Shown here piece by piece: positions 5,775 through 57,110 of a stretch of 64,000 nucleotides of DNA (its first letter is position 1; each line of letters opens with the position of its first letter). The notes under the pieces are model-generated. The model did no database searches, was not told the DNA's origin, and saw only the letters and a list, made by a program, of their open reading frames with translations. The stretch is from a virus. Lineage: Duplodnaviria; Caudoviricetes. A program made the position numbers and the translations under genes. The DNA is taken from the IMG/VR virus record IMGVR_UViG_3300012952_003952, positions 177,979-241,978 of that record; one strand, written 5' to 3'.

Positions 5775-6071
5775 ATGAATCCTTTAAGACTTTTTATAAG
5801 AGAAATTTTAAAAGAACAAGTAGTCGGGTATACACCGCCGCAAAAAGATTCTAGCGGAGATGACGACGCCGACTTTTTAGCTTATGGAGACATGTCAAGT
5901 CCAGCGCCTGCAAATCCTTCCGAAACCGAAGATCCAGAAGACGAAGAGCAGCTTCAGACGCAACTTCAGACTACTAATAAGCAACGCCAAAAAGATTTAG
6001 ATTCAGGTGATGCTACGGCTGCTAATTACGACGGTAGGGTACTTCAAAAACTTCAAAAAACTACAGGATAG
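5775..6071 (+). CDS. Acidic hypothetical protein with LRLFIREILKEQ leader (possible virion internal protein)
   Basis: Leader resembles those in the 51.6-54.5 kb array. Confidence 0.55.
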   Translation: MNPLRLFIREILKEQVVGYTPPQKDSSGDDDADFLAYGDMSSPAPANPSETEDPEDEEQLQTQLQTTNKQRQKDLDSGDATAANYDGRVLQKLQKTTG

Positions 6072-6122: not shown

Positions 6123-9100
6123 ATGAAAACACCCAGCAAGTTTTTTGGTTTACACGCGCATTCTGGCTTTTCTATTTTCGATGGGCTAGGTTATCCGCAA
6201 GAACATATTGATTTTTGTAGAGAGAATGGACTAGACGGATGGTCCATGACTGACCATGGTCACATGAACGGCTTTGGTCACGCTTATTTGCACACGGAAA
6301 AGCTAAATAAAGCAGGCGGTAATTTTAAGTTAATCCCCGGCTGCGAGATGTATGTTCATCCAGATTTAGACGTGTGGAAGCTAGATTACGAAATCAATAA
6401 AACAGCTAAAAAAGGAGACAAAGAAGCTTTAGCTATTTTAAAAAAGCAGAGAGAAGCAATTCAAACTCCTCTTCTCGCTTTTGTAGATGAGCATGACGAA
6501 ACTTTAAACGTTGGCCTAGAAGGCGCTTCTTTGACCGTTGAAAACGAAGAAGAAACTAAATCAGGAAAGTTTTATGATCCGATCAAGCGTCGTCACCATC
6601 TAGTGGTTTTACCAAAAACTTCCGAGGGATTGCAAAGGTTGTTCCACTTAGTTTCTCGAGGTTACACAGAGGGATTCTATAGATTTCCAAGAGTAGACTA
6701 TAAGATGCTTAAAGAAGCCGCTAAGGGTGGCCATCTAATGGTATCGACAGCTTGTATCGGTGGACCGTTAGCCTATGACGTGTTCCAACCGCTGCAAGAA
6801 ACCAATTTTGAAGATCTCATTCCTTCACTTTTTGATGACGAATCTTTAAGAAATAAAATTCTTTCTAAGTTTGAATATTCTTATGACCAGCTAGCGGATG
6901 CCGTTGGAGAAGAAAATGTAATGCTGGAATTGCAGTTTAATAAACTCCCAGCGCAGCACTTAGTAAACAAAGCTATATTAGAATTCGCTAGAACGCGATC
7001 TTTAACAGATCAACTTATTGTTACTTGCGATTCTCATTATGCTTCTCCTGACCACTGGAAAGAGAGAGAGCTTTATAAAAAGCTCGGGTGGCTAAACTAT
7101 CAAAGCTTTAATCCAGATAATTTGCCCAAATCTAAAGAAGACTTAAAGTGCGAACTGTACCCTAAGAATGCAAAACAGGTTTGGGAATCATATCTTGAAA
7201 CGACAGAAGGCCACGATTTTTATGAAGATTCAGAAATATTTGACGCTATAGAAAGAACACATGATGTTGCTCACGAGATGATTGGAGAAATTCACCCTGA
7301 TCGTAAAATGAAATTACCTTCTTATGTAGTTCCTAAAGGCCAAACAGCGAATAAAGCTCTTTTAGAAGCAGCTAAAGCTGGATTAATCAAGCGAGGACTA
7401 GCAAATCAACCAGAATATGTCGACAGGATGAAGACAGAGCTTAAAGTTATTTTTGATAAAAATTTCTCTGAGTATTTCTTAACCATGAAAGCAATTATTG
7501 ATCTTGCTCGCGAGAAAATGCTAGCTGGACCAGGCCGCGGATCTGGAGCAGGGTCTCTAGTGAATTACGCCCTTTATATTACTGACATAGATCCAGTGGA
7601 ATATGGGCTCTTATTTGAGCGGTTCATGTCTCCAGAGCGAACCGAAATGCCGGATATCGACACCGATATCGCAGACCGAGATGAACTCATTAAAATTCTT
7701 AGAGAGAATTTTGGTAACAAAAATGTGATTCCGATCTCAAATTACAATACTTTCAAGATCAAAAGTCTTCTTAAAGATGTTTCTAGATTTTATGGGATTG
7801 AATTCTCAGAAGTAAATAAGACTCTAGCTTCTCTAGAAAGAGATGTTGCTCAAGGAAGAAAAGCAGACGGCGTGGACGCAGCTTTTGATATTAGTTTTGA
7901 AGAAGCCAAGAAGTATTCTACTAAAGTTAGTGATTATCTAGAAAAATATCCTCAAATTGCAGACCCTATCAATGTGCTTTACAAGCAAAATAAAGCACTT
8001 GGCCGACACGCTGGTGGTGTCATTGTTTCTGAAAAAATAGAAGAAAGAATGCCTTTGATTGTGGCTCGTGGCGAAATGCAAACTCCTTGGGTCGAGGGAA
8101 TGAACTACAAGCACCTTGAAGAGTTTGGTTGGATTAAGTTTGATCTCCTCGGCCTAGAAACTCTTAGAATTATCGAAAGAACAATTTCTCTTGTTTTACA
8201 AAAATCAGGGGTGGAGAACCCAACGTTCGACCAGGTGGTAGATTGGTACAATGAAAATATTGCCCCAAACGTAATTGACTTCAACGATAGCAAAGTTTAC
8301 AAAAACGTATATCACTCTGGAAGGTGGGCTGGTATTTTTCAGTGCACTCAAAGAGGTGCGCAAGCTCTATTTAAAAGAGCTAAGCCAGAATCAGTAGTAG
8401 ATTTAGCTACTCTTACTTCTATTTATCGTCCTGGTCCACTTTCTGCAAAAGTAGATAAGCTTTACATTAAAGCCAAAAACAATCCGCAGAATGTTTTTTA
8501 TGGTCACCCTTTAATCGAACAAGTTCTAAATTCAACTTATGGAATGATTATCTTCCAAGAGCAAGTAATGGAACTTTGCCATGTCGTAGCCGGTTTTCCA
8601 AAAGCAGAATGTAATAAGCTTAGAAAGATGATGAAGCCGGTTGGGTCTGGTAACGAAAATGTAAAGAAGGCTGCAGCTCTAAAGAATAAATTCGTAGAAG
8701 GAGCTTCGCAAAATGGAGTAGATAAAAATATAGCTAGCGAGCTTTACGATAGAATCTTGTATTTCAGTGGCTATGGTTTCAATAAGTCTCACGCTGTTTC
8801 TTACGCAGTTAATTCTTACCACTGCGCTTGGCTTATGACTTACTACGAGCAAGAATGGATTCAAGCTTATTTAGAAGCTTGTTCTGGTAACCCTAAAAAG
8901 CTTTCTAAAGCCCTAAGCGAAGTAAAAGCTTTAGGATACAACATTGTTCCCATCGATATCAATAAAGCTGGTAAAGCTTGGAGTTGCGTAGACGACAATT
9001 CTTTGATGCCGTCTTTTCTCTCTTGTAAAGGCGTTGGCGAAGCTGCTGTAGAAGAAATCTTAGAGCAGAGACCTTACTCTTCTATTGAAGATTTGTTTTG

Positions 9101-9722
9101 GGATGAAGAAGGAAAGTGGAAGCATGCAAAATTCAATAAAAGAGCTATTGAATCTTTAATCAAGATTAGAGCTTTTGATTCTCTTGATTGTGTGGGTCCA
9201 GACAAAACTTTCCAAAGTTATTCTCACATGCACACTGTACTCATGGAAAACTTTAATGATATCAGGAAGAGAACCAAGAAAGATCCTTATCGCGGCAAGA
9301 ATAACTTTATTAAAGCTTTAGTAGAATCTCCTCGTTCTGAAGAGTGGTCTTTCGATGCGTTGATGAACTTTGAAGAAGAGTTGTTGGGAACTATTAACGT
9401 AGAAGCTCTTCTTCCGAAAAAATTCGTGAAGAAGATGACCGAAAAGAATATCCATTCTTTAGACGATCATAACGGAAGAGAGTTTTATTGGTTCGTTTTG
9501 ACTAAAGCTATACCTAAGCTTACAAAAAACAAGAAGCCATACCTTCTTTTAAATGGAATAGCTTCAACTGGAAGGGTCCATAGAATGTTTTGCTGGGGAG
9601 TTCCTAAAGATGCTGACCTTCCGCCGTTTACTTTTTGTATAGCCGAAGTAGACAAAAACGACTTTGGGATGTCTACTAAGTGGAACAGAATTAAAAAATT
9701 TAGCTTTAATGATTTAGCTTAA
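6123..9722 (+). CDS. dnaE: DNA polymerase III alpha subunit (family C)
   Basis: PHP domain (HAHS..S.FDG, TDHG, DSHY), GPGRGSGAGSLV, catalytic MPDIDTD, GRHAGG, KFDLLGL, YRPGP, YGFNKSHA. Confidence 0.97.
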   Translation: MKTPSKFFGLHAHSGFSIFDGLGYPQEHIDFCRENGLDGWSMTDHGHMNGFGHAYLHTEKLNKAGGNFKLIPGCEMYVHPDLDVWKLDYEINKTAKKGDKEALAILKKQREAIQTPLLAFVDEHDETLNVGLEGASLTVENEEETKSGKFYDPIKRRHHLVVLPKTSEGLQRLFHLVSRGYTEGFYRFPRVDYKMLKEAAKGGHLMVSTACIGGPLAYDVFQPLQETNFEDLIPSLFDDESLRNKILSKFEYSYDQLADAVGEENVMLELQFNKLPAQHLVNKAILEFARTRSLTDQLIVTCDSHYASPDHWKERELYKKLGWLNYQSFNPDNLPKSKEDLKCELYPKNAKQVWESYLETTEGHDFYEDSEIFDAIERTHDVAHEMIGEIHPDRKMKLPSYVVPKGQTANKALLEAAKAGLIKRGLANQPEYVDRMKTELKVIFDKNFSEYFLTMKAIIDLAREKMLAGPGRGSGAGSLVNYALYITDIDPVEYGLLFERFMSPERTEMPDIDTDIADRDELIKILRENFGNKNVIPISNYNTFKIKSLLKDVSRFYGIEFSEVNKTLASLERDVAQGRKADGVDAAFDISFEEAKKYSTKVSDYLEKYPQIADPINVLYKQNKALGRHAGGVIVSEKIEERMPLIVARGEMQTPWVEGMNYKHLEEFGWIKFDLLGLETLRIIERTISLVLQKSGVENPTFDQVVDWYNENIAPNVIDFNDSKVYKNVYHSGRWAGIFQCTQRGAQALFKRAKPESVVDLATLTSIYRPGPLSAKVDKLYIKAKNNPQNVFYGHPLIEQVLNSTYGMIIFQEQVMELCHVVAGFPKAECNKLRKMMKPVGSGNENVKKAAALKNKFVEGASQNGVDKNIASELYDRILYFSGYGFNKSHAVSYAVNSYHCAWLMTYYEQEWIQAYLEACSGNPKKLSKALSEVKALGYNIVPIDINKAGKAWSCVDDNSLMPSFLSCKGVGEAAVEEILEQRPYSSIEDLFWDEEGKWKHAKFNKRAIESLIKIRAFDSLDCVGPDKTFQSYSHMHTVLMENFNDIRKRTKKDPYRGKNNFIKALVESPRSEEWSFDALMNFEEELLGTINVEALLPKKFVKKMTEKNIHSLDDHNGREFYWFVLTKAIPKLTKNKKPYLLLNGIASTGRVHRMFCWGVPKDADLPPFTFCIAEVDKNDFGMSTKWNRIKKFSFNDLA

Positions 9723-35764: not shown

Positions 35765-37015
35765 ATGAAAAAAGGTTTAAAAATAATGAACGAACAAGCG
35801 ATCCGAAAGGTTATCCGACAAGAAATAAAGAAACAGAATTCGCTGCTTTTAGAGCAGGGTGGAACAATTTATTACAGCAAAGATGAGTTTTATGATGCTT
35901 TCATTGGTCCGTGGATCAACGTTTTAAAAGTGATAAAAAACGAGAGTCAAAAAACTTTAGCTAACGTTAAAACATCGTTTCAAGTTTTCTTTACGTTCAA
36001 CCAAAAGAAAGCGGAGCTGCTTCTGGCTAAAAATAGAGATAGAGTAGCAAAAATAAACGCCGACACCGATGCCATTCTAAAGACGATGCCAATCAATGGC
36101 GAATTTAAAGCAGCGGCCTTTATCATGAATCCTGGAGCTTATTTAGCTATTAATCACGGTCCAGATTTTGCAAGAGGTACTGTGGATTATTTAAAAGGAG
36201 CAGGTTTTGGAGACTTCTTACCAGACGAATCTAATTACGATGCTCAAAAAAGAAAAGACGACGACAAAGGTCCTATTGGAAAAGCTCTTTCTGCTCTAAA
36301 TCAGATTTTTCTTCTCGCAGGAGCTACTCACCCTGGCCAAATATTAACCGAGCAAGATGAAGAATCAGAAGCAGAGATAGAAGATGAATCGCAAATACCT
36401 CCAGACCTTATAATTCAAGCTTTTGAAGAAAGTGGAGACTTGCAAAAAATAGAAAAAGTCAAAAAAGATTTTCTAGATTCTATTTTTCTAGGAGAAGATT
36501 CTATAGAGTCTCTTGCAACTTTGGCCAATAGCCAGATGAAGTTTTTAGAAAATGTTGCTGGCGCTACGAATGTGGAAGAATTAAATAAGTCACTACAAGA
36601 ATTTAAAGTGGCTGCTCCAGAAGCTGACCTTGGTGGAGTAGAAAAATTACCTGAAACTTTAAAACAAGATGCAGAAAACATAGCAAACAATGAAAAAGCT
36701 ATGAAGAAAATTAAAGAAGAATTCTTAAAAGAAAAAGGTATGGACGCTGAAGAGGTCGATAATATCGATAAGCAAGAGTTGCGAGATTATGTAAATAATT
36801 TAGCATTTGGTCAAGCTATGTCAGGTGTCCAAAGTTCAGTAAAAGAAACAACGCAAAATTTAATAAGATTCACCGAAGACAGTATTGATGAACAAGTCCA
36901 GTCTCTATGGTCCGAAATGAATAAAGCGGTACCAGAAATAGACTTAGATCCAAACAACGATCCGGTCCTCCAGAGTTATATTAAGGCTGCTAAGCAAAAA
37001 ATTCAAGCTCCTTAA
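35765..37015 (+). CDS. Hypothetical protein with IRKVIRQEI/LLEQ/LTEQ motifs (possible virion protein)
   Basis: ORF; leader similar to the array proteins. Confidence 0.6.
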   Translation: MKKGLKIMNEQAIRKVIRQEIKKQNSLLLEQGGTIYYSKDEFYDAFIGPWINVLKVIKNESQKTLANVKTSFQVFFTFNQKKAELLLAKNRDRVAKINADTDAILKTMPINGEFKAAAFIMNPGAYLAINHGPDFARGTVDYLKGAGFGDFLPDESNYDAQKRKDDDKGPIGKALSALNQIFLLAGATHPGQILTEQDEESEAEIEDESQIPPDLIIQAFEESGDLQKIEKVKKDFLDSIFLGEDSIESLATLANSQMKFLENVAGATNVEELNKSLQEFKVAAPEADLGGVEKLPETLKQDAENIANNEKAMKKIKEEFLKEKGMDAEEVDNIDKQELRDYVNNLAFGQAMSGVQSSVKETTQNLIRFTEDSIDEQVQSLWSEMNKAVPEIDLDPNNDPVLQSYIKAAKQKIQAP

Positions 37016-43634: not shown

Positions 43635-44309
43635 ATGGCTTATAGAAAAGTGCTTCAGTGGCCTGACGAAAGGCTTCAGAAAAAATCTGAAAATGTCGTG
43701 CAAGAAGACGATTCTATTATGTCTCTTATGAATGACATGATAGACACTCTTAAAATAGAAAGAGGGGCGGGGCTAGCAGCTCCACAAATTGGATTTAATC
43801 AAAATGTTGTTGTTTTAGATTTAGGAGAAATGGAATCTCCCTCTGGAATCACTCAGAAGCTTTCTGATGAATTAGTGGACGAAAGATATTGGTTCCTATT
43901 GAATCCAAAGTTGGATACTTCGAGGGAGACTCAGAGCTGGTCAGAGGGTTGTTTATCTGTTCCCTGGGTTAGTGAAGATGTAGAAAGACATTCTGCATGC
44001 ACAGTAAACTATATGACTTTAGATTTTAAAGCAAAATCGATTAGCCTTGGTTGGCCACTCTCAGGTGCAATTCAGCATGAGTGCGACCATCTAGACGGTG
44101 TTCTTTTTTTAGATAGATTAAGTCGCTTAAAATCTAGCAGGCTAAAAAAGTCTATTACTAAAAAGAGAAAAAAGATAGAATCATACAAAGAAAATCTCTT
44201 GAGCGATCCTGAAGAAAAGAAGATAGGAAAAAAGAAGAAGAATTCTCATATTGGAAAAAAAGAGCTTCAAAAAAGAAGAACTACAAGGCGTAGATCTGGA
44301 AGAAAATAG
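43635..44309 (+). CDS. def: Peptide deformylase with basic C-terminal extension
   Basis: GAGLAAPQIG, EGCLS, QHECDHLDG. Confidence 0.95.
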   Translation: MAYRKVLQWPDERLQKKSENVVQEDDSIMSLMNDMIDTLKIERGAGLAAPQIGFNQNVVVLDLGEMESPSGITQKLSDELVDERYWFLLNPKLDTSRETQSWSEGCLSVPWVSEDVERHSACTVNYMTLDFKAKSISLGWPLSGAIQHECDHLDGVLFLDRLSRLKSSRLKKSITKKRKKIESYKENLLSDPEEKKIGKKKKNSHIGKKELQKRRTTRRRSGRK

Positions 44310-47752: not shown

Positions 47753-48514
47753 ATGATTCAAGAATTATCAATCCTTTTAGAGAGCTACGAAGACCGTGGA
47801 ATTAAGTCCCGAGAATATTATTTTTTAAGGGATATGGAATACAACCTTAAGAAAGAGAGAAATATCTCAGAGGGCCAGAGAAGTTGGCTAGAGCGTATCT
47901 TAGAAAGAGGCGCTCCAAAAGCTGTAGACAAAGATTCTTTAGCAAAAATAGAGTCTCTCATAGAGTTAGACAGTATTTCTTCTGCAAAAAAGAAAGTACT
48001 TTCAAATCTTCGAAGCCAAGCTTATAGTGGAAAAATTCTGAGTGAAAAACAAAAAAAGTTAATAGAACAAATTAGCTCTCAAGCAGCATCTCCTAAACGA
48101 TTTTTAAAAGATTCAAAAACTATAGAGCAAATAAGATTCATTCTGAAGCTTACGACATCTAGAAAACCTTCTTACTGGAGACTTAGACCCCAGCAGCTTC
48201 AAGCTATATCTGAATTAAACGAGTGGCTGGAGTGGAGCGATAGCGGGAGCATGTGCCAAGAGCCTCCCTTGGATGTCTATTCTTACGAAAGCTTGAAAAA
48301 AATATTTAAGAGACAACTTTCAGAATTAGAGAAATCACCGCACCCAGAAGGATCTATGAGACTGATAAAAATTTCAAGTGAATACATTCCAGCTTTAGTC
48401 ATTGGAAAACCTTATGTTTCTGATCTTGGATACGTTGTTCATCCAGTGTTAGTTAATGGTATAAACAGGGAAGTTAAGAAATTATTTATGCCCTCAGATG
48501 TTAAAACTAGCTAG
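47753..48514 (+). CDS. Hypothetical protein
   Basis: ORF with repeated S-x-x-Q helices. Confidence 0.6.
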   Translation: MIQELSILLESYEDRGIKSREYYFLRDMEYNLKKERNISEGQRSWLERILERGAPKAVDKDSLAKIESLIELDSISSAKKKVLSNLRSQAYSGKILSEKQKKLIEQISSQAASPKRFLKDSKTIEQIRFILKLTTSRKPSYWRLRPQQLQAISELNEWLEWSDSGSMCQEPPLDVYSYESLKKIFKRQLSELEKSPHPEGSMRLIKISSEYIPALVIGKPYVSDLGYVVHPVLVNGINREVKKLFMPSDVKTS

Positions 48515-49481: not shown

Positions 49482-50315
49482 ATGTCAAAAGATCCATTTA
49501 AAATACTCGGAATAAACAGAGGAGCTTCAGAAAAAGAAATTAAATCTGCTTATAGAAAGCTCGCGCTAAAGTACCACCCAGATAAAAATCCAGACGACCC
49601 AGCAGCTGCAAAAAAATTTAGTGAAATAACGCAGGCTTACGAGTTAGCTATGAACCCATCCAAACAGCAAGGGCACCAAAATCCATTTGAGGGTTTTGGT
49701 TTTGACATTAACGACCCCTTTGGTGCTTTTTTTGATAGTGCTTTTTTTGGATCTCACAGGTTTAGTGACATCCCTTTAGACACTGAAGTGAATTTAAAAA
49801 TTAGCTTTATGGACTCTGTGAAGGGCGCTAAACGAGTTATAAGGTACGATAGATATGTTATAGCTAATGAGGGGTATCAAGTAGAAGCTACTGAAATACA
49901 AGTTACTATTCCTCCAGGAATTAAGAGAGGTCAAACTCTAAGAGTTACAAGTGGAGGAAACGTTTCTAGAAGGGGTACAGGCGATTTATATGTCAATGTT
50001 TTCTGCCCTTCCGAAAATGGAGAATTTGTAAGGCGTGGCAGAGATATACTCTCGAAGATAGAAATAGACTATTTAGACGCAATGCTTGGTGCGCCAATAG
50101 AAATAAACACTATTCACGGTAAAAAAACAGTTGATGTTCCACCTTTTTGCAACGCGAATATTCCTTTAGTTTTAAAAAACCAGGGAATCCATGTTGGGGG
50201 ATATCGTGGAAATCATTTTGCCGAGTTCGTTATAACGATACCTCAAAATGTTAGTCCAGAAGAATTACAGTTGTTAAGAAACGCTAGAAAAATTAGGAAA
50301 ACAAAAAATGGTTAA
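49482..50315 (+). CDS. dnaJ: DnaJ (class II, no zinc finger)
   Basis: DPFKILG, IKSAYRKLALKYHPDKN, G/F-rich linker, IPPG, GDLYV, RRGRDI, TIHG. Confidence 0.92.
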   Translation: MSKDPFKILGINRGASEKEIKSAYRKLALKYHPDKNPDDPAAAKKFSEITQAYELAMNPSKQQGHQNPFEGFGFDINDPFGAFFDSAFFGSHRFSDIPLDTEVNLKISFMDSVKGAKRVIRYDRYVIANEGYQVEATEIQVTIPPGIKRGQTLRVTSGGNVSRRGTGDLYVNVFCPSENGEFVRRGRDILSKIEIDYLDAMLGAPIEINTIHGKKTVDVPPFCNANIPLVLKNQGIHVGGYRGNHFAEFVITIPQNVSPEELQLLRNARKIRKTKNG

Positions 50316-50661
50316 AGAGCTGATTTTTTCTTTCTTACTTTTTACTTGTTTGCACGCGTGTATCTGGTTCTCTACAAATACTCAGTTTATGGGAGAAGAA
50401 TTAAAAAACAAAAGTCTACAAATAGCTTTAGCGCTTTCAATCCCGATCAGCATGCTGGGATATTTTGCGGCTAAATATTCCTATGAAGCTTTAGGAGAAT
50501 CTCTTTGGGCAATTAGATTTATAGGCTTCGGAACGTCTTATTTGATATTTCCGATATTCACTTGGATATTTGTTGGAGAGTCTATGTTTACCCTCAAGAC
50601 AATGATATGTGTTCTTCTCTCTTTTGTAATTGTAAGTATTCAGGTATTCTGGCCATCTTAA
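50308..50661 (+). CDS. Four-helix membrane protein (DMT/SMR-like)
   Basis: Four hydrophobic segments. Confidence 0.55.
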   Translation: MVKELIFSFLLFTCLHACIWFSTNTQFMGEELKNKSLQIALALSIPISMLGYFAAKYSYEALGESLWAIRFIGFGTSYLIFPIFTWIFVGESMFTLKTMICVLLSFVIVSIQVFWPS

Positions 50662-51143: not shown

Positions 51144-51572
51144 ATGTTAGAAATTTTAAAATCGTGCTGGGGACTAATCGCTGGATTAGGAGAGGCTCTA
51201 TTAGATATTGTTTTAGTCGTGGGAGTTTGGGGATATGAAATTCTCCATCACTTGCATGTTAATGCTCCTCGCTTAGAAGGACTTTTAATAGGCGTTGCTC
51301 TTGCTTGGGTGCTCTTAAGAAGAGATAACCACCCCCTACTAAGAGTAATTAGCGCTCCCTTAAAGTTGGTTGTGGATATTTTAGATCTCGCATGGGACCA
51401 AGTCGTAGAAATATTCCAAGATCTCTGGGGAACTGTTACTGGCTGGGTCAATGGAGTCGTAGGATGGGTTAAAGGAAAAGTCATTAGTGGTTATAATTGG
51501 CTTATAAAATCATTGAAATCAGTTAAAGCCAGAATAGATAGCTGGGACAAAAAAGAAGAGGATAAAAAATGA
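51144..51572 (+). CDS. Membrane-associated hypothetical protein
   Basis: Trp-rich amphipathic helices. Confidence 0.6.
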   Translation: MLEILKSCWGLIAGLGEALLDIVLVVGVWGYEILHHLHVNAPRLEGLLIGVALAWVLLRRDNHPLLRVISAPLKLVVDILDLAWDQVVEIFQDLWGTVTGWVNGVVGWVKGKVISGYNWLIKSLKSVKARIDSWDKKEEDKK

Positions 51573-51639: not shown

Positions 51640-51912
51640 ATGAAAATTACTAAAAGACAACTTAAGAGAATCATCAAAGAAGCAATCGACCCAGAGTATA
51701 TGAGGGAAGAGATCATGTCTTTCGCTGAAGAAACAGACGCCGAAGGATTAAGTGTTCTATTAGACATCATCGGTGGGCCTCCTCTAGCTAGTGGTAAAGA
51801 GGCAAACTTAGATGCTGCATTCGATATCATTGACAAGCACGTCACAGGATCTTATCCAGAAGACTTAGCATACATTCATCAAGAATTAACAAACGCGGGA
51901 TATTTCGGATGA
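51640..51912 (+). CDS. MKITKRQL-leader protein 1
   Basis: MKITKRQLKRIIKEA. Confidence 0.75.
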   Translation: MKITKRQLKRIIKEAIDPEYMREEIMSFAEETDAEGLSVLLDIIGGPPLASGKEANLDAAFDIIDKHVTGSYPEDLAYIHQELTNAGYFG

Positions 51913-52136
51913 AAATCACAAAAAGACAACTTAAGCAAATAATCCAAGAAGAAGTATATGGAGATCACCCTAGTTCTTACCGGCCTGGTGATTCACCGTT
52001 GACAGATCTTGCTGCTGGAATCGAAGACGCTATGCAAAACGCAGTCGGCAAGATAGACTTAGATTATAGTGATGATCCTCTAACTTATAAAGACATCCTT
52101 GATTTTGTCGTAAGAATGCTGCACGAGCAAAGATAG
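51909..52136 (+). CDS. MKITKRQL-leader protein 2
   Basis: MKITKRQLKQIIQEE. Confidence 0.75.
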   Translation: MKITKRQLKQIIQEEVYGDHPSSYRPGDSPLTDLAAGIEDAMQNAVGKIDLDYSDDPLTYKDILDFVVRMLHEQR

Positions 52137-52146
52137 ATATCAGAAA

Positions 52147-52554
52147 ATGAAAATCACCAAAAAACAACTAAGAACAATCATCAAAGAAGCAGCTGATTCT
52201 TATGACGCTGAAGCTGATGAGTGGTATGAATATAGGCATCAAGAAGACCAGATGGAAGCTGAAGACTATATGATGGACTCTTTGTATGATATAGTAGAAA
52301 AGAATCCTGGTTTATCTGGAGATGATCTGATTAAATCTGCAATGCAAGATGGAATATTTGGCGGAAAGACAAAAGAAGAAATCTTTGATATTGCCGATCA
52401 GATGGTCGATATGTCAACCCTTAAATTCGATTTAGAAGAAGACCAGTGGTGGATAGATCGTTCAGAAGATCTTTATAGCCCTTCCCACCAAGCTGATCTA
52501 GATCATGCCAATCAAGCTTATATTGATAAACATGGAGACCCTTATGAAGATTAG
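52147..52554 (+). CDS. MKITKRQL-leader protein 3
   Basis: MKITKKQLRTIIKEA. Confidence 0.75.
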   Translation: MKITKKQLRTIIKEAADSYDAEADEWYEYRHQEDQMEAEDYMMDSLYDIVEKNPGLSGDDLIKSAMQDGIFGGKTKEEIFDIADQMVDMSTLKFDLEEDQWWIDRSEDLYSPSHQADLDHANQAYIDKHGDPYED

Positions 52555-53083
52555 CAAGAGACAACTTAGAAATATCATCAAAGAAGCCATTGACGTTATC
52601 AACGCATCAACTGGTGAGATAAAGATCTTTGCTGATGAAGGTGATCCAGCATTGGGTGACTTTAAACCTGACGCTCCAGAGTTGGCGGCAAGAGATGTCA
52701 TAAAAAGATTAGGGTTAACTCCCCTTGAAAATATGGACGATAGTGACCGCGAGCCTGGTGTTGAGGAAATATATCTCGGTGCTGAAGACTGGGCCGAGAT
52801 GGACTATGAAATTGGTGGCAAGAGACATAAGCGTAAAGCAAAGAAAGAACTTGCCCGCCTGAACATTGATAATCTTATGACTCGCTTAGAAGACTGGGCC
52901 GTCAATGCTGGTGAAGAGTATGTCGCAGATAATCCAGGTACGGACTTGCAAGACATCGCTTGGGATTTAGCGCAAGGCGCAGAATTCTCTTTCGAGCCCG
53001 ATGAGTGGAATGCACTCTTGTATACTGGTCCTTTTGAGGGCGAAGATGATCTTCATACATACGTCGCAGATTTAATTGCATAG
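52544..53083 (+). CDS. MKITKRQL-leader protein 4
   Basis: MKISKRQLRNIIKEA; GGAG RBS before ATG 52544. Confidence 0.75.
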   Translation: MKISKRQLRNIIKEAIDVINASTGEIKIFADEGDPALGDFKPDAPELAARDVIKRLGLTPLENMDDSDREPGVEEIYLGAEDWAEMDYEIGGKRHKRKAKKELARLNIDNLMTRLEDWAVNAGEEYVADNPGTDLQDIAWDLAQGAEFSFEPDEWNALLYTGPFEGEDDLHTYVADLIA

Positions 53084-53091
53084 GAAACAAA

Positions 53092-53379
53092 ATGAAAATC
53101 ACAAAACGACAACTAAGAAGAATCATCAAAGAAGAGAAACAAAAACTCCTCAAAGAGTATTCCGATTATCCATCATGGCAAGACCTGTCTGACCAGATAG
53201 ACGATATTTCAGAAATGTTAGACATGGCCGCAGACAAGTATGTTACGAGTGCATGGTTGTTTAGCGGTGAAAATGAAGGTAACGCCATCGCTGATGGAGT
53301 AGCTGAAAAATTAGAACAACTCTATAGAGACGCCGAGGCATTGGGCGGGCTAATCAGGGGAAGCGGAGCATTAAGATGA
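53092..53379 (+). CDS. MKITKRQL-leader protein 5
   Basis: MKITKRQLRRIIKEE. Confidence 0.75.
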   Translation: MKITKRQLRRIIKEEKQKLLKEYSDYPSWQDLSDQIDDISEMLDMAADKYVTSAWLFSGENEGNAIADGVAEKLEQLYRDAEALGGLIRGSGALR

Positions 53380-53996
53380 AAATAACCAAGAAACAACTTG
53401 TAGAGATAATCCAAGAACAGATCGAACGTGTGGCCAAAGACGACATTGAAGATGCTGTGATGGATGTTCTTAGCGATGAAGGCGGAGCTGCCGGCATAGA
53501 GCCAATCGAAGACGCTCTTGAAGATCTTGAAGATGATGATGTAAGCTTACCTGAAGATCCAATTGAAGATGTCATAAGCAGCGTTACAGGTGTTAAGAGA
53601 CACGCTGACGGCGACTATGTAGATACTACAAAACTAGAAGGTAGAAAAATGAAAGTCACAAAGAGGCAGTTACGACAGATTATTAAAGAAGAAGTTTTAA
53701 AAGAATCGCTAGCTCAAAATGTTAGAGATTTGCTAGATCAAGATTACGAAATTGCAAATACAGATACTAAATATCCTTACGGTCGTAATAGAGGCGATGT
53801 TAGAAGTACAACGGTTTATTCTAGAAAAGACGGTCAACCTGTACCGCCAGAAGATTTAAAGCTGCTTCAGGATCGTGATCAAGATATATTAGACCGTGGC
53901 GGCCCAATGGCGGCGCTGGGAGGAATATACACCTCAACGCTTTCCCCAGATGGTAATTCATTAATAGTTAAATACTATAAGCATACTGCAGGCTAA
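53376..53996 (+). CDS. MKITKRQL-leader protein 6 (two leader copies)
   Basis: MKITKKQLVEIIQEQ and internal MKVTKRQLRQIIKEE at 53649. Confidence 0.75.
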   Translation: MKITKKQLVEIIQEQIERVAKDDIEDAVMDVLSDEGGAAGIEPIEDALEDLEDDDVSLPEDPIEDVISSVTGVKRHADGDYVDTTKLEGRKMKVTKRQLRQIIKEEVLKESLAQNVRDLLDQDYEIANTDTKYPYGRNRGDVRSTTVYSRKDGQPVPPEDLKLLQDRDQDILDRGGPMAALGGIYTSTLSPDGNSLIVKYYKHTAG

Positions 53997-53997
53997 A

Positions 53998-54300
53998 ATG
54001 AAAATCACTAAAAGACAACTTAGAAGAATTATTAACGAAGCTTGGGCTGATACAGGTGTAGATCTAGTCCAGTTTATAATCGACAACATTCAAGCAGAGT
54101 CAAACCCAACCGGCGCAGTCGATTGGGATACTGATGAACTCTATGAATTTTTAGAAAAACAGGGTTGGACAGAAGAAGAAATAGATTTCGCAGTAGAAGA
54201 CCCTCGCGTAGGTAAATACTTTGACAGGCTTGAAGGCCTTTACTCAGCTAAACAAGGGACGCTTGATGACTATAATCAGCACCCAGAATGGTTTAATTAA
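53998..54300 (+). CDS. MKITKRQL-leader protein 7
   Basis: MKITKRQLRRIINEA. Confidence 0.75.
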   Translation: MKITKRQLRRIINEAWADTGVDLVQFIIDNIQAESNPTGAVDWDTDELYEFLEKQGWTEEEIDFAVEDPRVGKYFDRLEGLYSAKQGTLDDYNQHPEWFN

Positions 54301-54302
54301 AA

Positions 54303-54542
54303 ATGAAAATTACAAAGAGACAACTAAGAAGAATTATCAAAGAGTATAAAGAAATGCTCAGCCCCGGCCACATAGACGGCCAGCCGTGGAGCGGTACCTT
54401 AGAAGATCTCGCCGTAGTCCAAAGTAAGACTTGGGGCCATGGAGAAGTCGTAGACAAGAAAGGCTACCGAGATATAGTCGGTCACGCTAGAGACTTAACG
54501 GCTGGAAAAGCTAAAAGCCCAGTAAAAAAATACGGAAAGTGA
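54303..54542 (+). CDS. MKITKRQL-leader protein 8
   Basis: MKITKRQLRRIIKEY. Confidence 0.75.
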   Translation: MKITKRQLRRIIKEYKEMLSPGHIDGQPWSGTLEDLAVVQSKTWGHGEVVDKKGYRDIVGHARDLTAGKAKSPVKKYGK

Positions 54543-55969: not shown

Positions 55970-56262
55970 TTAATCAACTAGAATTTCTTTTTTCAAGTCT
56001 AAAATCTATTAGTAGAGATACCGCTATGCTAGAAATGTTTGATTGGAATGAAGAAAATCTAGAGAAATTTAATCAAGAAGTTGCTCATGCGTTGACCCTT
56101 CACGAAATGTCTAGTCCAAAAGCTTTAGTAGATTTTTTAATAGCTACAGCTGAACCATACACTATAGATTATATGAAAGAAGAACTAAAGAATGTAATGG
56201 AAGAATTAGTTGAACATTCTCTTATCGAAGTAAATAATTTACATGAAGGTGGAGATAACTAA
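55966..56262 (+). CDS. Hypothetical protein
   Basis: ATGA-coupled ORF. Confidence 0.55.
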   Translation: MINQLEFLFSSLKSISRDTAMLEMFDWNEENLEKFNQEVAHALTLHEMSSPKALVDFLIATAEPYTIDYMKEELKNVMEELVEHSLIEVNNLHEGGDN

Positions 56263-57110
56263 TGAAGAAAAATTTAGATGAAAGTGGTAAAAGAGTAGTA
56301 CTGCATAAGTTTGAAAAACTAAAAGAAACTACAAGAGAAAAATCTCCAGAAGATAAGCTGGCTATTGTGTTAGATTTGGAAACTACTGGGCTTTCTAAAG
56401 ATCACGACGAAATAATCGAAATTGCATTCCGGCCGTTTTATTTCTGTACGAAAACTTTTGAGCCTACAAAATTAGCTCGAAAATTTGTCTTATATAATGA
56501 ACCAACTTCTCCAATCAGAGAAGAGATAACTGGTTTCACCGGAATAACAGATGAAATGGTAAAAGGTCAATCGGTTGACTGGGCTTGGCTGAGAAACATG
56601 CTTAATTCCGCAGATTATATTATTTGCCATAACGCTGGATTTGATCGCGGCTTCTTAGAGACTGCTCTAGAAAAATCAGGCAATCCAGCTACCGATGATG
56701 TGATTTGGGCTTGTTCTATGAAACAAGTCGACTGGATTGAGTTCTGCCGTCCCTCTAAAGCTTTGGAAGTTTTGTGCGCGTGGTCTGGCTTCTTTTACGA
56801 TTCTCATCGAGCTCATGTCGATATCGATGCTCTTCTTCATCTTTTGAGAGAAGAATCTAAGATGGAAGAACTTATTTCAAATGCTTCTACTGCAGACTAT
56901 AGAGTTTTTGCGATGAACTCTCCAAGAGAAATGAACCATCTCTTAAAGAGGCGATGGTACAGATGGGACCCTAATGTCAACATGTGGTGGAAAAACACCA
57001 GCACCCAAGAAGAAGCAGAGCAAGAAACAGAGTGGTTAAAAGATAATTTAAAAGGAGTCGAACCACAAATATTTCCCATGGAGCCGAAATATCGTTTTGC
57101 ACCCGAATAA
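56262..57110 (+). CDS. DEDDh 3'-5' exonuclease (Pol III epsilon-like)
   Basis: ExoI VLDLETTG, IIEIA, ExoII HNAGFDR, ExoIII HRAHVD. Confidence 0.9.
   Translation: MKKNLDESGKRVVLHKFEKLKETTREKSPEDKLAIVLDLETTGLSKDHDEIIEIAFRPFYFCTKTFEPTKLARKFVLYNEPTSPIREEITGFTGITDEMVKGQSVDWAWLRNMLNSADYIICHNAGFDRGFLETALEKSGNPATDDVIWACSMKQVDWIEFCRPSKALEVLCAWSGFFYDSHRAHVDIDALLHLLREESKMEELISNASTADYRVFAMNSPREMNHLLKRRWYRWDPNVNMWWKNTSTQEEAEQETEWLKDNLKGVEPQIFPMEPKYRFAPE

Follow-up and report, generated by a model that had tools for sequence, protein, structure and literature searches.

A conserved 14-residue leader on unrelated small proteins of a T4-like jumbo phage as a candidate prohead-loading tag

The internal proteins (IPs) and Alt of bacteriophage T4 carry an N-terminal capsid-targeting sequence (CTS) of 10-19 residues, bind the prohead core and have the CTS removed by the protease gp21 (PMC9026906; for the CTS, Mullaney and Black 1996, as reviewed in passages of PMC9026906, PMC3012670 and PMC5694885). 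In IPIII the first ten residues, MKTYQEFIAE, suffice, where positions 4 and 7 determine targeting and I8 and E10 determine processing (PMC9026906). The T4 sequences were checked in this study: ipII and ipIII both start with MKTYQEFIAE/A, where the slash marks the cut, and ipI reads ITE/A with the motif at positions 17-19. IPI to IPIII have isoelectric points (pI) of 8.9-9.5 and contain no [LI]xE motif beyond the CTS. Here, a leader of comparable form is described from the last 64 kb of a 241,978-bp IMG/VR virus contig (IMGVR_UViG_3300012952_003952, 38.8% GC), which derives from an uncultured marine T4-like jumbo phage; this stretch of 64,000 nucleotides, taken at its full length, is referred to as the window. 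An array of eight small genes at window positions 51640-54542 encodes proteins that share a 14-residue leader and are otherwise unrelated, and the leader is probably a loading tag of the CTS type.

Three further groups of head-internal proteins are relevant for comparison. The T-even IP loci are highly diverse, with the CTS alone being conserved (PMC3012670), and these hyperplastic loci (Repoila et al. 1994, as covered in parts of PMC3012670 and PMC9026906) are read there as the outcome of an arms race with host defences. The T4 core proteins gp22, gp67 and gp68 undergo cleavage, and the resulting fragments exit the head (PMC5694885). Of these, gp67 has 80 amino acids and a pI of 4.05, and in the T4 gene order 20-67-68-21-22-23, which was confirmed, genes 67 and 68 occupy the slot upstream of the protease gene. 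Finally, in the phiKZ-like phages (201phi2-1, phiKZ and SPN3US) a protease related to gp21 cleaves many proteins of the head interior after Glu (PMC9026906, PMC5694885). Their propeptides differ from the leader described here in that they are often longer than 100 residues, share no tag and end in an S/A/G-x-E motif, and the phiKZ-like capsid and portal are not T4-like.

The array consists of eight tightly packed open reading frames (ORFs) on the plus strand, 75-206 codons long and spaced by overlaps or by gaps of 0-10 bp. MKITKRQLRRIIKE or a variant of it opens all eight, and the sixth ORF contains a further complete copy, the ninth. A first-pass annotation of the same DNA had listed nine leader starts (51640, 51909, 52147, 52544, 53092, 53376, an internal one at 53649, 53998 and 54303), all of which are real, and had described each copy as ending in I-x-E, which is the case in nine of nine. 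The copies follow the pattern M-K-[IV]-[TS]-K-[KR]-Q-L-x-x-I-I-x-E, equal to 14 amino acids or 42 bp. The remainders of the proteins, here called bodies, had been described as unrelated and acidic. The former description was borne out, as no similarity among them was detected by BLASTP at E 0.01; the sole cross-match of a window gene was that of 52147 to a gene of a second array, with 28% identity over 60 amino acids. The latter description fits seven of the eight bodies (pI 4.05-5.0) and fails for 54303, which is basic with a pI of 9.3. Pfam and PHROGs returned no family for the eight window proteins or for the two flanking ORFs.

The first gene (51640..51912, 90 amino acids) has the leader MKITKRQLKRIIKE and a body of pI 4.05 with no further [LI]xE, and its stop is overlapped by the start of the second (51909..52136, 75 amino acids), whose leader ends in IQE and whose body has a pI of 4.2. 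The third gene (52147..52554, 135 amino acids), with a body net charge of -27, is the one weakly similar to a gene of the other array, at genome position 11571. The start of the fourth (52544..53083, 179 amino acids) was set at the ATG at 52544, internal to an ORF opening at 52505; its body has a net charge of -25 and, like those of 51640 and 54303, contains no internal [LI]xE. The fifth gene (53092..53379) encodes 95 amino acids. In the sixth (53376..53996, 206 amino acids) a leader and a first acidic body are followed by a full leader and a second body; GAAGGT precedes this ninth copy (53649..53690, MKVTKRQLRQIIKE) by about 9 nt, and the copy marks either a fusion junction or a start of its own. 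The seventh gene (53998..54300, 100 amino acids; leader end INE) has close metagenomic homologues (79-90% identical), of which one follows another leader protein in a fusion, and the eighth (54303..54542, 79 amino acids) carries the only basic body. All nine copies are on the plus strand. The junctions between the genes often read stop-TAA-A-ATG (TAAAATG), with a weak GGA/GAG/AGG element 8-12 nt upstream, which suggests translational coupling along the array.

In the whole contig, a degenerate DNA pattern with up to three mismatches gave 23 forward matches and the reversed pattern none, so the repeat is not due to chance. A leader profile found about 25-30 copies, all on the plus strand and in two clusters, the window array at genome 229.6-232.5 kb and a larger, second array at 8.3-18.4 kb. 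CheckV rated the 242-kb contig as 57% complete, and complete relatives measure 284-293 kb; because both arrays lie near contig ends, the true number of copies may be higher. At positions where two leaders agree in amino acid, 44-46% of the codon pairs are different versus 55-56% expected from the codon usage of the genome, in agreement with the synonymous variation reported in the first-pass annotation. Mean identity between copies is 72-77% for nucleotides and 72-80% for amino acids, and the longest identical DNA run has a median of 10 nt. The leader is thus conserved at the protein level with its synonymous codons almost randomised, and these near-random codons, together with the short identical runs, make a purely RNA- or DNA-level explanation unlikely.

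Looser versions of the leader had also been suggested at 5775, 35765, 45723 and 50701, and none was found by the profile at E<=10. Those at 35765, 45723 and 50701 were rejected, as they show no resemblance by eye either. The acidic 98-codon ORF at 5775..6071 (plus strand) starts with MNPLRLFIREILKE; by eye it has some likeness to the latter half of the leader and might, with low confidence, be a degenerate relative.

A T4-type head module is located about 35-48 kb before the window and comprises a terminase, a portal, a protease, a scaffold candidate and two capsid genes. The portal matches Portal_T4 (5.7e-77) and lies in the same module as the large terminase. The head protease (genome 134373-134984) matches Peptidase_S77 (PF03420, 2.8e-24) and the PHROG 'head maturation protease' (6.3e-50), and its His and Ser residues align with those in the GELNHP and VSSRG segments of T4 gp21. 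The scaffold candidate (genome 137435-139084) has 549 amino acids and is very acidic, with a pI of 4.6. Both gp23-type capsid proteins contain V-L-R-E/A at residues 58-62, which aligns with F-L-T-E/A of T4 gp23 both locally and globally; with the motif at the position of the T4 cut, capsid maturation at L-R-E/A is predicted. The protease residues and the capsid motif together imply that the phage very probably follows the T4 rule of cutting after L/I-x-E. The two capsid genes form a tandem pair at genome 139110-142965 with near-identical N-termini, and relative G002 has only one such gene.

The distribution of the leader was determined by a degenerate pattern scan of IMG/VR, which yielded at least 115 stretches on at least 83 contigs of 5-293 kb; the figures that follow refer to the matches listed. 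At least 481 leader copies were found in these stretches by the profile, of which at least 417 begin complete ORFs, whose median length is 107 amino acids. Among the 417, the most conserved positions are M1, L8 (414/417), Q7 (408/417), I12 (407/417) and E14 (415/417), and conservation drops beyond residue 15. BLAST grouped 438 bodies, including those of the present genome, into 245 clusters, of which 166 have a single member; the body of the second window gene (51909) belongs to a family of five. When 96 cluster representatives of at least 120 amino acids were searched against Pfam, only two had a domain, one HNH and one RMF. Five leader-bearing contigs are 254-293 kb long, three of them 96-100% complete, and each has a single S77 protease gene together with 19-34 leader copies, almost all of which share a strand. 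Tandem arrays reach about 17 leader genes.

Outside these contigs the leader left little trace. A search of 5.8 billion proteins gave metagenomic and unnamed matches only. Neither the array nor one of its members matched any of 50,697 phage records by blastn or tblastn, a search in which the low-complexity filter may hide the tag. The profile phrog_3323 merely touches the leader at an E value of about 0.75, and the leader string in four spellings was not found in the literature searched.

The neighbourhood of the leader genes points to the head module. When 830 non-leader neighbours from the at least 115 stretches were clustered, the top named families were the large terminase TerL (16 stretches), the T4-type portal (14) and the S77 protease (9), with unnamed head-module proteins also among the top clusters. 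Nine of the listed stretches contain the protease gene, and in seven of them its immediate upstream neighbour is a leader gene; the nine stretches are on nine contigs, mostly of a T4-like lineage with a protease unlike that of the present genome. The gene order there is terminase, portal, three small genes, leader gene and protease, and the bodies of the seven protease-adjacent leader genes are mutually unrelated. In relative G002 the capsid gene is followed without interruption by four leader genes. The present genome encodes a head-module protein by its protease gene (genome 135443-135865, L001:5644-6066) that starts with MAKISRNALKGLVKE. Its N-terminus is in register with the leader, a weak match with an hhalign E value of 0.02 and a probability of 2%. 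Homologues of 132-148 amino acids are encoded at L135:12393-12839, L024:1469-1882, L090:4042-4437 and L026:915-1337; the family begins with M..K...K..LKPLVKECI.EVL.EEGLL, contains several L/I/V-x-E motifs and corresponds to no Pfam or PHROG family. It may be a core protein that served as the source of the tag or that the tag imitates.

Comparison with relatives also revealed a rapid turnover of the bodies. The genes flanking the window array occur in the same order in the relative G003, a complete genome of 293 kb, with protein identities of 54-88%. At this syntenic site G003 has two leader genes versus eight here; the first is a homologue of 54303 (87% identity) and the second is new, so that only one gene is shared, and the check on payload turnover suggested in the first-pass annotation came out positive. 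In a different G003 array, homologues of 53092 (94% identical) and 52544 (50%) are adjacent in reversed order. As in the T-even IP loci, bodies are replaced and the tag is kept between related phages; the present system differs in its hundreds of body families on at least 83 contigs, its tandem arrays and its multi-leader fusions. Of the payload shuffling that had been proposed along with the array, the movement of cassettes between arrays stands. That the 42-bp leader itself mediates this movement is plausible but unproven because the identical runs are so short.

G002 also encodes a protein with two leaders like that of 53376, in which the second body is a different one, and metagenomic relatives include fusions joined within or at the leader. 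In total, 17 of 463 listed IMG/VR reading frames with a leader match carry two or three leaders; multi-leader proteins include that at 53376-53996 in the window, one at L136:6159-6836 and a 437-codon frame with three leaders in L098. At 23 distinct internal junctions, own genome included, the Met position is occupied by I, T, R, K or A in ten, residues unable to initiate translation; these ten are true fusions in which the leader is still intact. The conserved E-G/S-K/R that precedes internal copies is most simply an in-frame remnant of the Shine-Dalgarno-like sequence (GGAG/GAAGG) of a former gene start, as found ahead of ordinary leader genes, and the junctions are therefore read as gene fusions. 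A second cut site before internal leaders was considered, as [LI]xE occurs at 9 of the 23 junctions versus a background of 9%, and was discarded since this count is confounded by the Shine-Dalgarno remnant.

On balance, the leader is probably a prohead-core loading tag of the T4 CTS type that is removed after Glu14 by the S77 protease. The leader, as a basic amphipathic helix, would dock a small protein onto the acidic prohead core, that is the scaffold, late in infection. The I-x-E would serve as the cut site of the S77 (gp21-family) protease, and the tag would be removed after Glu14 once the shell has closed. No part of the protein other than the tag would be needed for loading, and any small gene acquiring the tag would become capsid cargo; such tag-only loading would explain the hundreds of unrelated bodies and their rapid exchange between arrays and relatives. 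We infer that leader proteins bind the core, are cleaved and are present in virions. As a helix, the leader has a hydrophobic moment of 0.76 versus 0.37 for shuffled sequences and a net charge of +5, and such a strongly amphipathic basic helix, if formed as modelled, would suit binding to an acidic scaffold and fits other roles too. In AlphaFold2 models of two window proteins with homologues, residues 5-16 are helical at low confidence, with a predicted local distance difference test score (pLDDT) of 41-52, and unpacked from the body. A complex prediction of the protease with the leader region gave a score of 0.01, was run without controls and counts neither for nor against cleavage.

The likeness to the T4 CTS lies in a short N-terminal tag common to unrelated proteins, whose 14 residues fall within the T4 range of 10-19, its L/I-x-E end, the presence of a gp21-family S77 protease gene and the recurrence of the same motif at the predicted maturation site of the capsid protein. 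In addition, the cargo genes are dispersed outside the head module as ipI to ipIII are in T4. On the other hand, the leader has a charge of +5 versus -1 for the T4 tag, and 19-34 cargo genes per genome compare with 3-4 in T4. The first-pass annotation had proposed a modular capsid-loading tag combined with a cassette of injected effectors. The T4-like genome, the S77 protease, the capsid L-R-E/A and the linkage to head genes strengthen that proposal, whereas its part concerning stable injected effectors is weakened by bodies that are acidic and undepleted in internal cut motifs. If the tag is indeed a head-loading signal, 14 residues would flag thousands of ocean phage proteins that resist annotation as candidate cargo. 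The concept of the T4 IPs, so far three basic proteins, would then widen to dozens of acidic proteins per genome, swapped as cassettes, and would bear on counter-defence in large phages and on tags for packaging foreign proteins.

Several observations weigh against a CTS-type role. The leader has no significant similarity to MKTYQEFIAE or MKTFKEF...; only the M-K start and the I-x-E end are common, and tags of this length are too short to judge homology. Its helix is also compatible with binding to a membrane or to nucleic acid. The bodies are acidic, with a pI below 5.5 in 79% versus 44-48% of the remaining proteome, and are not depleted in the cut motif: [LI]xE occurs 1.65 times per 100 amino acids with a ratio to shuffled sequences of 1.22, which is similar to control motifs. 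T4 IPs are basic and have no such motif beyond the CTS. The window array sits among replication- and housekeeping-type genes, and a late-promoter motif, TATAAATA, is neither enriched nor placed before the arrays. The nearest cultured phage, Flavobacterium phage immuto, whose protease is 45% identical, does not carry this tag. The window array is about 95 kb from the protease gene, i.e. not in the slot between portal and protease that gp67 and gp68 occupy in T4, and a search for enriched 7-mers before the arrays retrieved generic AT-rich and -10-like words only. The bodies are also poor in cysteine (0.2% versus 1.1% in the remaining proteome) and enriched in Asp and Glu.

Where the cargo ends up is a separate matter, on which the evidence divides: the hypervariability of the bodies favours retention and injection, whereas the charge and cut-motif statistics favour degradation. 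Breakdown and expulsion, in the manner of T4 gp67 and gp22, are almost as probable as the slightly preferred outcome, in which the cargo would be retained and leave with the ejected DNA as fast-evolving host-directed proteins. A bolder version of the latter, in which 20-34 different, rapidly exchanged small acidic proteins per genome are loaded by one tag and injected together with the DNA or before it, forming a first-strike arsenal, is more doubtful still; its members would be DNA mimics, decoys or inhibitors of host defence. If this version were true, the repertoire would be by far the largest set of injected effectors of any phage, and the tag a universal address for effectors in metagenomes. 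For the 52544 family, AlphaFold2 gave a confident helical bundle at residues 100-179. A fold search with this model returned best matches of Z<=6, within the stated noise for helical models: LAGLIDADG-like folds for the low-confidence half and, for the confident half, helical bundles that include T7 Ocr at Z 4.7. This search gave no functional assignment and, with the Ocr match within the noise, speaks neither for nor against a DNA mimic.

The best-surviving alternative, which we regard as rather unlikely, keeps the same tag and protease but makes the proteins disposable prohead-core components in the manner of T4 gp67 or gp22. They would fill or shape a very large prohead, be cut up by the protease and leave before or during packaging. 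In T4 the gene of the acidic gp67 lies just upstream of the protease gene, a slot held by leader genes in the seven of nine listed loci, and in both charge and gene position the leader family is closer to gp67 than to the IPs. The acidity of the bodies, like that of gp67 and gp22 and unlike that of the IPs, and their undepleted internal [LI]xE motifs speak for the same fate. However, neither the 245 unrelated body clusters with 166 singletons nor the difference of eight versus two genes between close relatives is expected for structural filler, the bodies of 51640, 52544 and 54303 lack an internal cut motif, and at least one body contains a confidently folded domain. Moreover, the bodies are hypervariable, which sets them apart from gp67 and gp68 as prohead core proteins of T4 (PMC5694885), and no PHROG or Pfam match indicating homology to gp67 or gp68 was obtained for them. 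If the bodies were nevertheless disposable core filler, they would inform how very large T4-type heads are built. T4 gp67 (L140:6782-7024) itself contains ...IDLIKEEKIA..., which resembles the end of the leader and its commonest continuation (RIIKEEK...), a similarity too short to test.

It is improbable that the leader is instead a recognition sequence for machinery unrelated to the capsid, such as a modifying enzyme like those of ribosomally synthesised and post-translationally modified peptides, the phage DnaJ, or an export or sorting system. A DnaJ homologue with a J domain and a C-terminal domain (49482-50315) indeed lies 1.3 kb before the array, with synteny retained in G003, but most leader arrays are not adjacent to DnaJ. 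No modifying enzyme recurs among the 830 neighbours in the at least 115 stretches, the top named families being terminase, portal and head protease, and recognition of this kind would leave the near-invariant I12 and E14 unexplained. Still less probable is a leader that acts as a permanent working helix, as an anchor to a membrane or nucleic acid or by pairing with the acidic body. The high hydrophobic moment, the charge of +5 and the predicted helix agree with this, yet it fails to explain the near-invariant I-x-E, the link to head genes and why the leader has so far been confined to genomes encoding an S77 protease, and 14 residues with four hydrophobic side chains would make a weak membrane anchor. 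That the repeat is a nucleic-acid feature with an incidental peptide, i.e. an RNA element acting in translation initiation or regulation, or else a recombination site, is very improbable: the A-rich coding start (ATGAAAAT...) behind weak Shine-Dalgarno-like sequences, the TAAA-ATG junctions and the movement of cassettes between arrays would suit it, but it is largely refuted by the near-random synonymous sites and the 10-nt median identical run, and the amino-acid identity of the leaders is at least equal to their nucleotide identity.

The surroundings of the array contain a peptide deformylase (43635-44309), an RNase T-type exonuclease (56262-57110) and, recognised by eye only, a polymerase-like ORF of 1199 codons (6123-9722). 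Together with DnaJ, the deformylase and the exonuclease near the array are unusual auxiliary genes for a phage. The flank that is syntenic with G003 includes, on one side, a 253-codon ORF (47753-48514), DnaJ, a 117-codon ORF (50308-50661) and two ORFs of 142 codons, and on the other side a 271-codon ORF and others. The small ORFs 51144-51572 and 50308-50661, directly upstream of the array, encode hydrophobic proteins that are 61% and 75% identical to their G003 counterparts, respectively, and a family like that of 51144 recurs near leader arrays in at least seven IMG/VR stretches.

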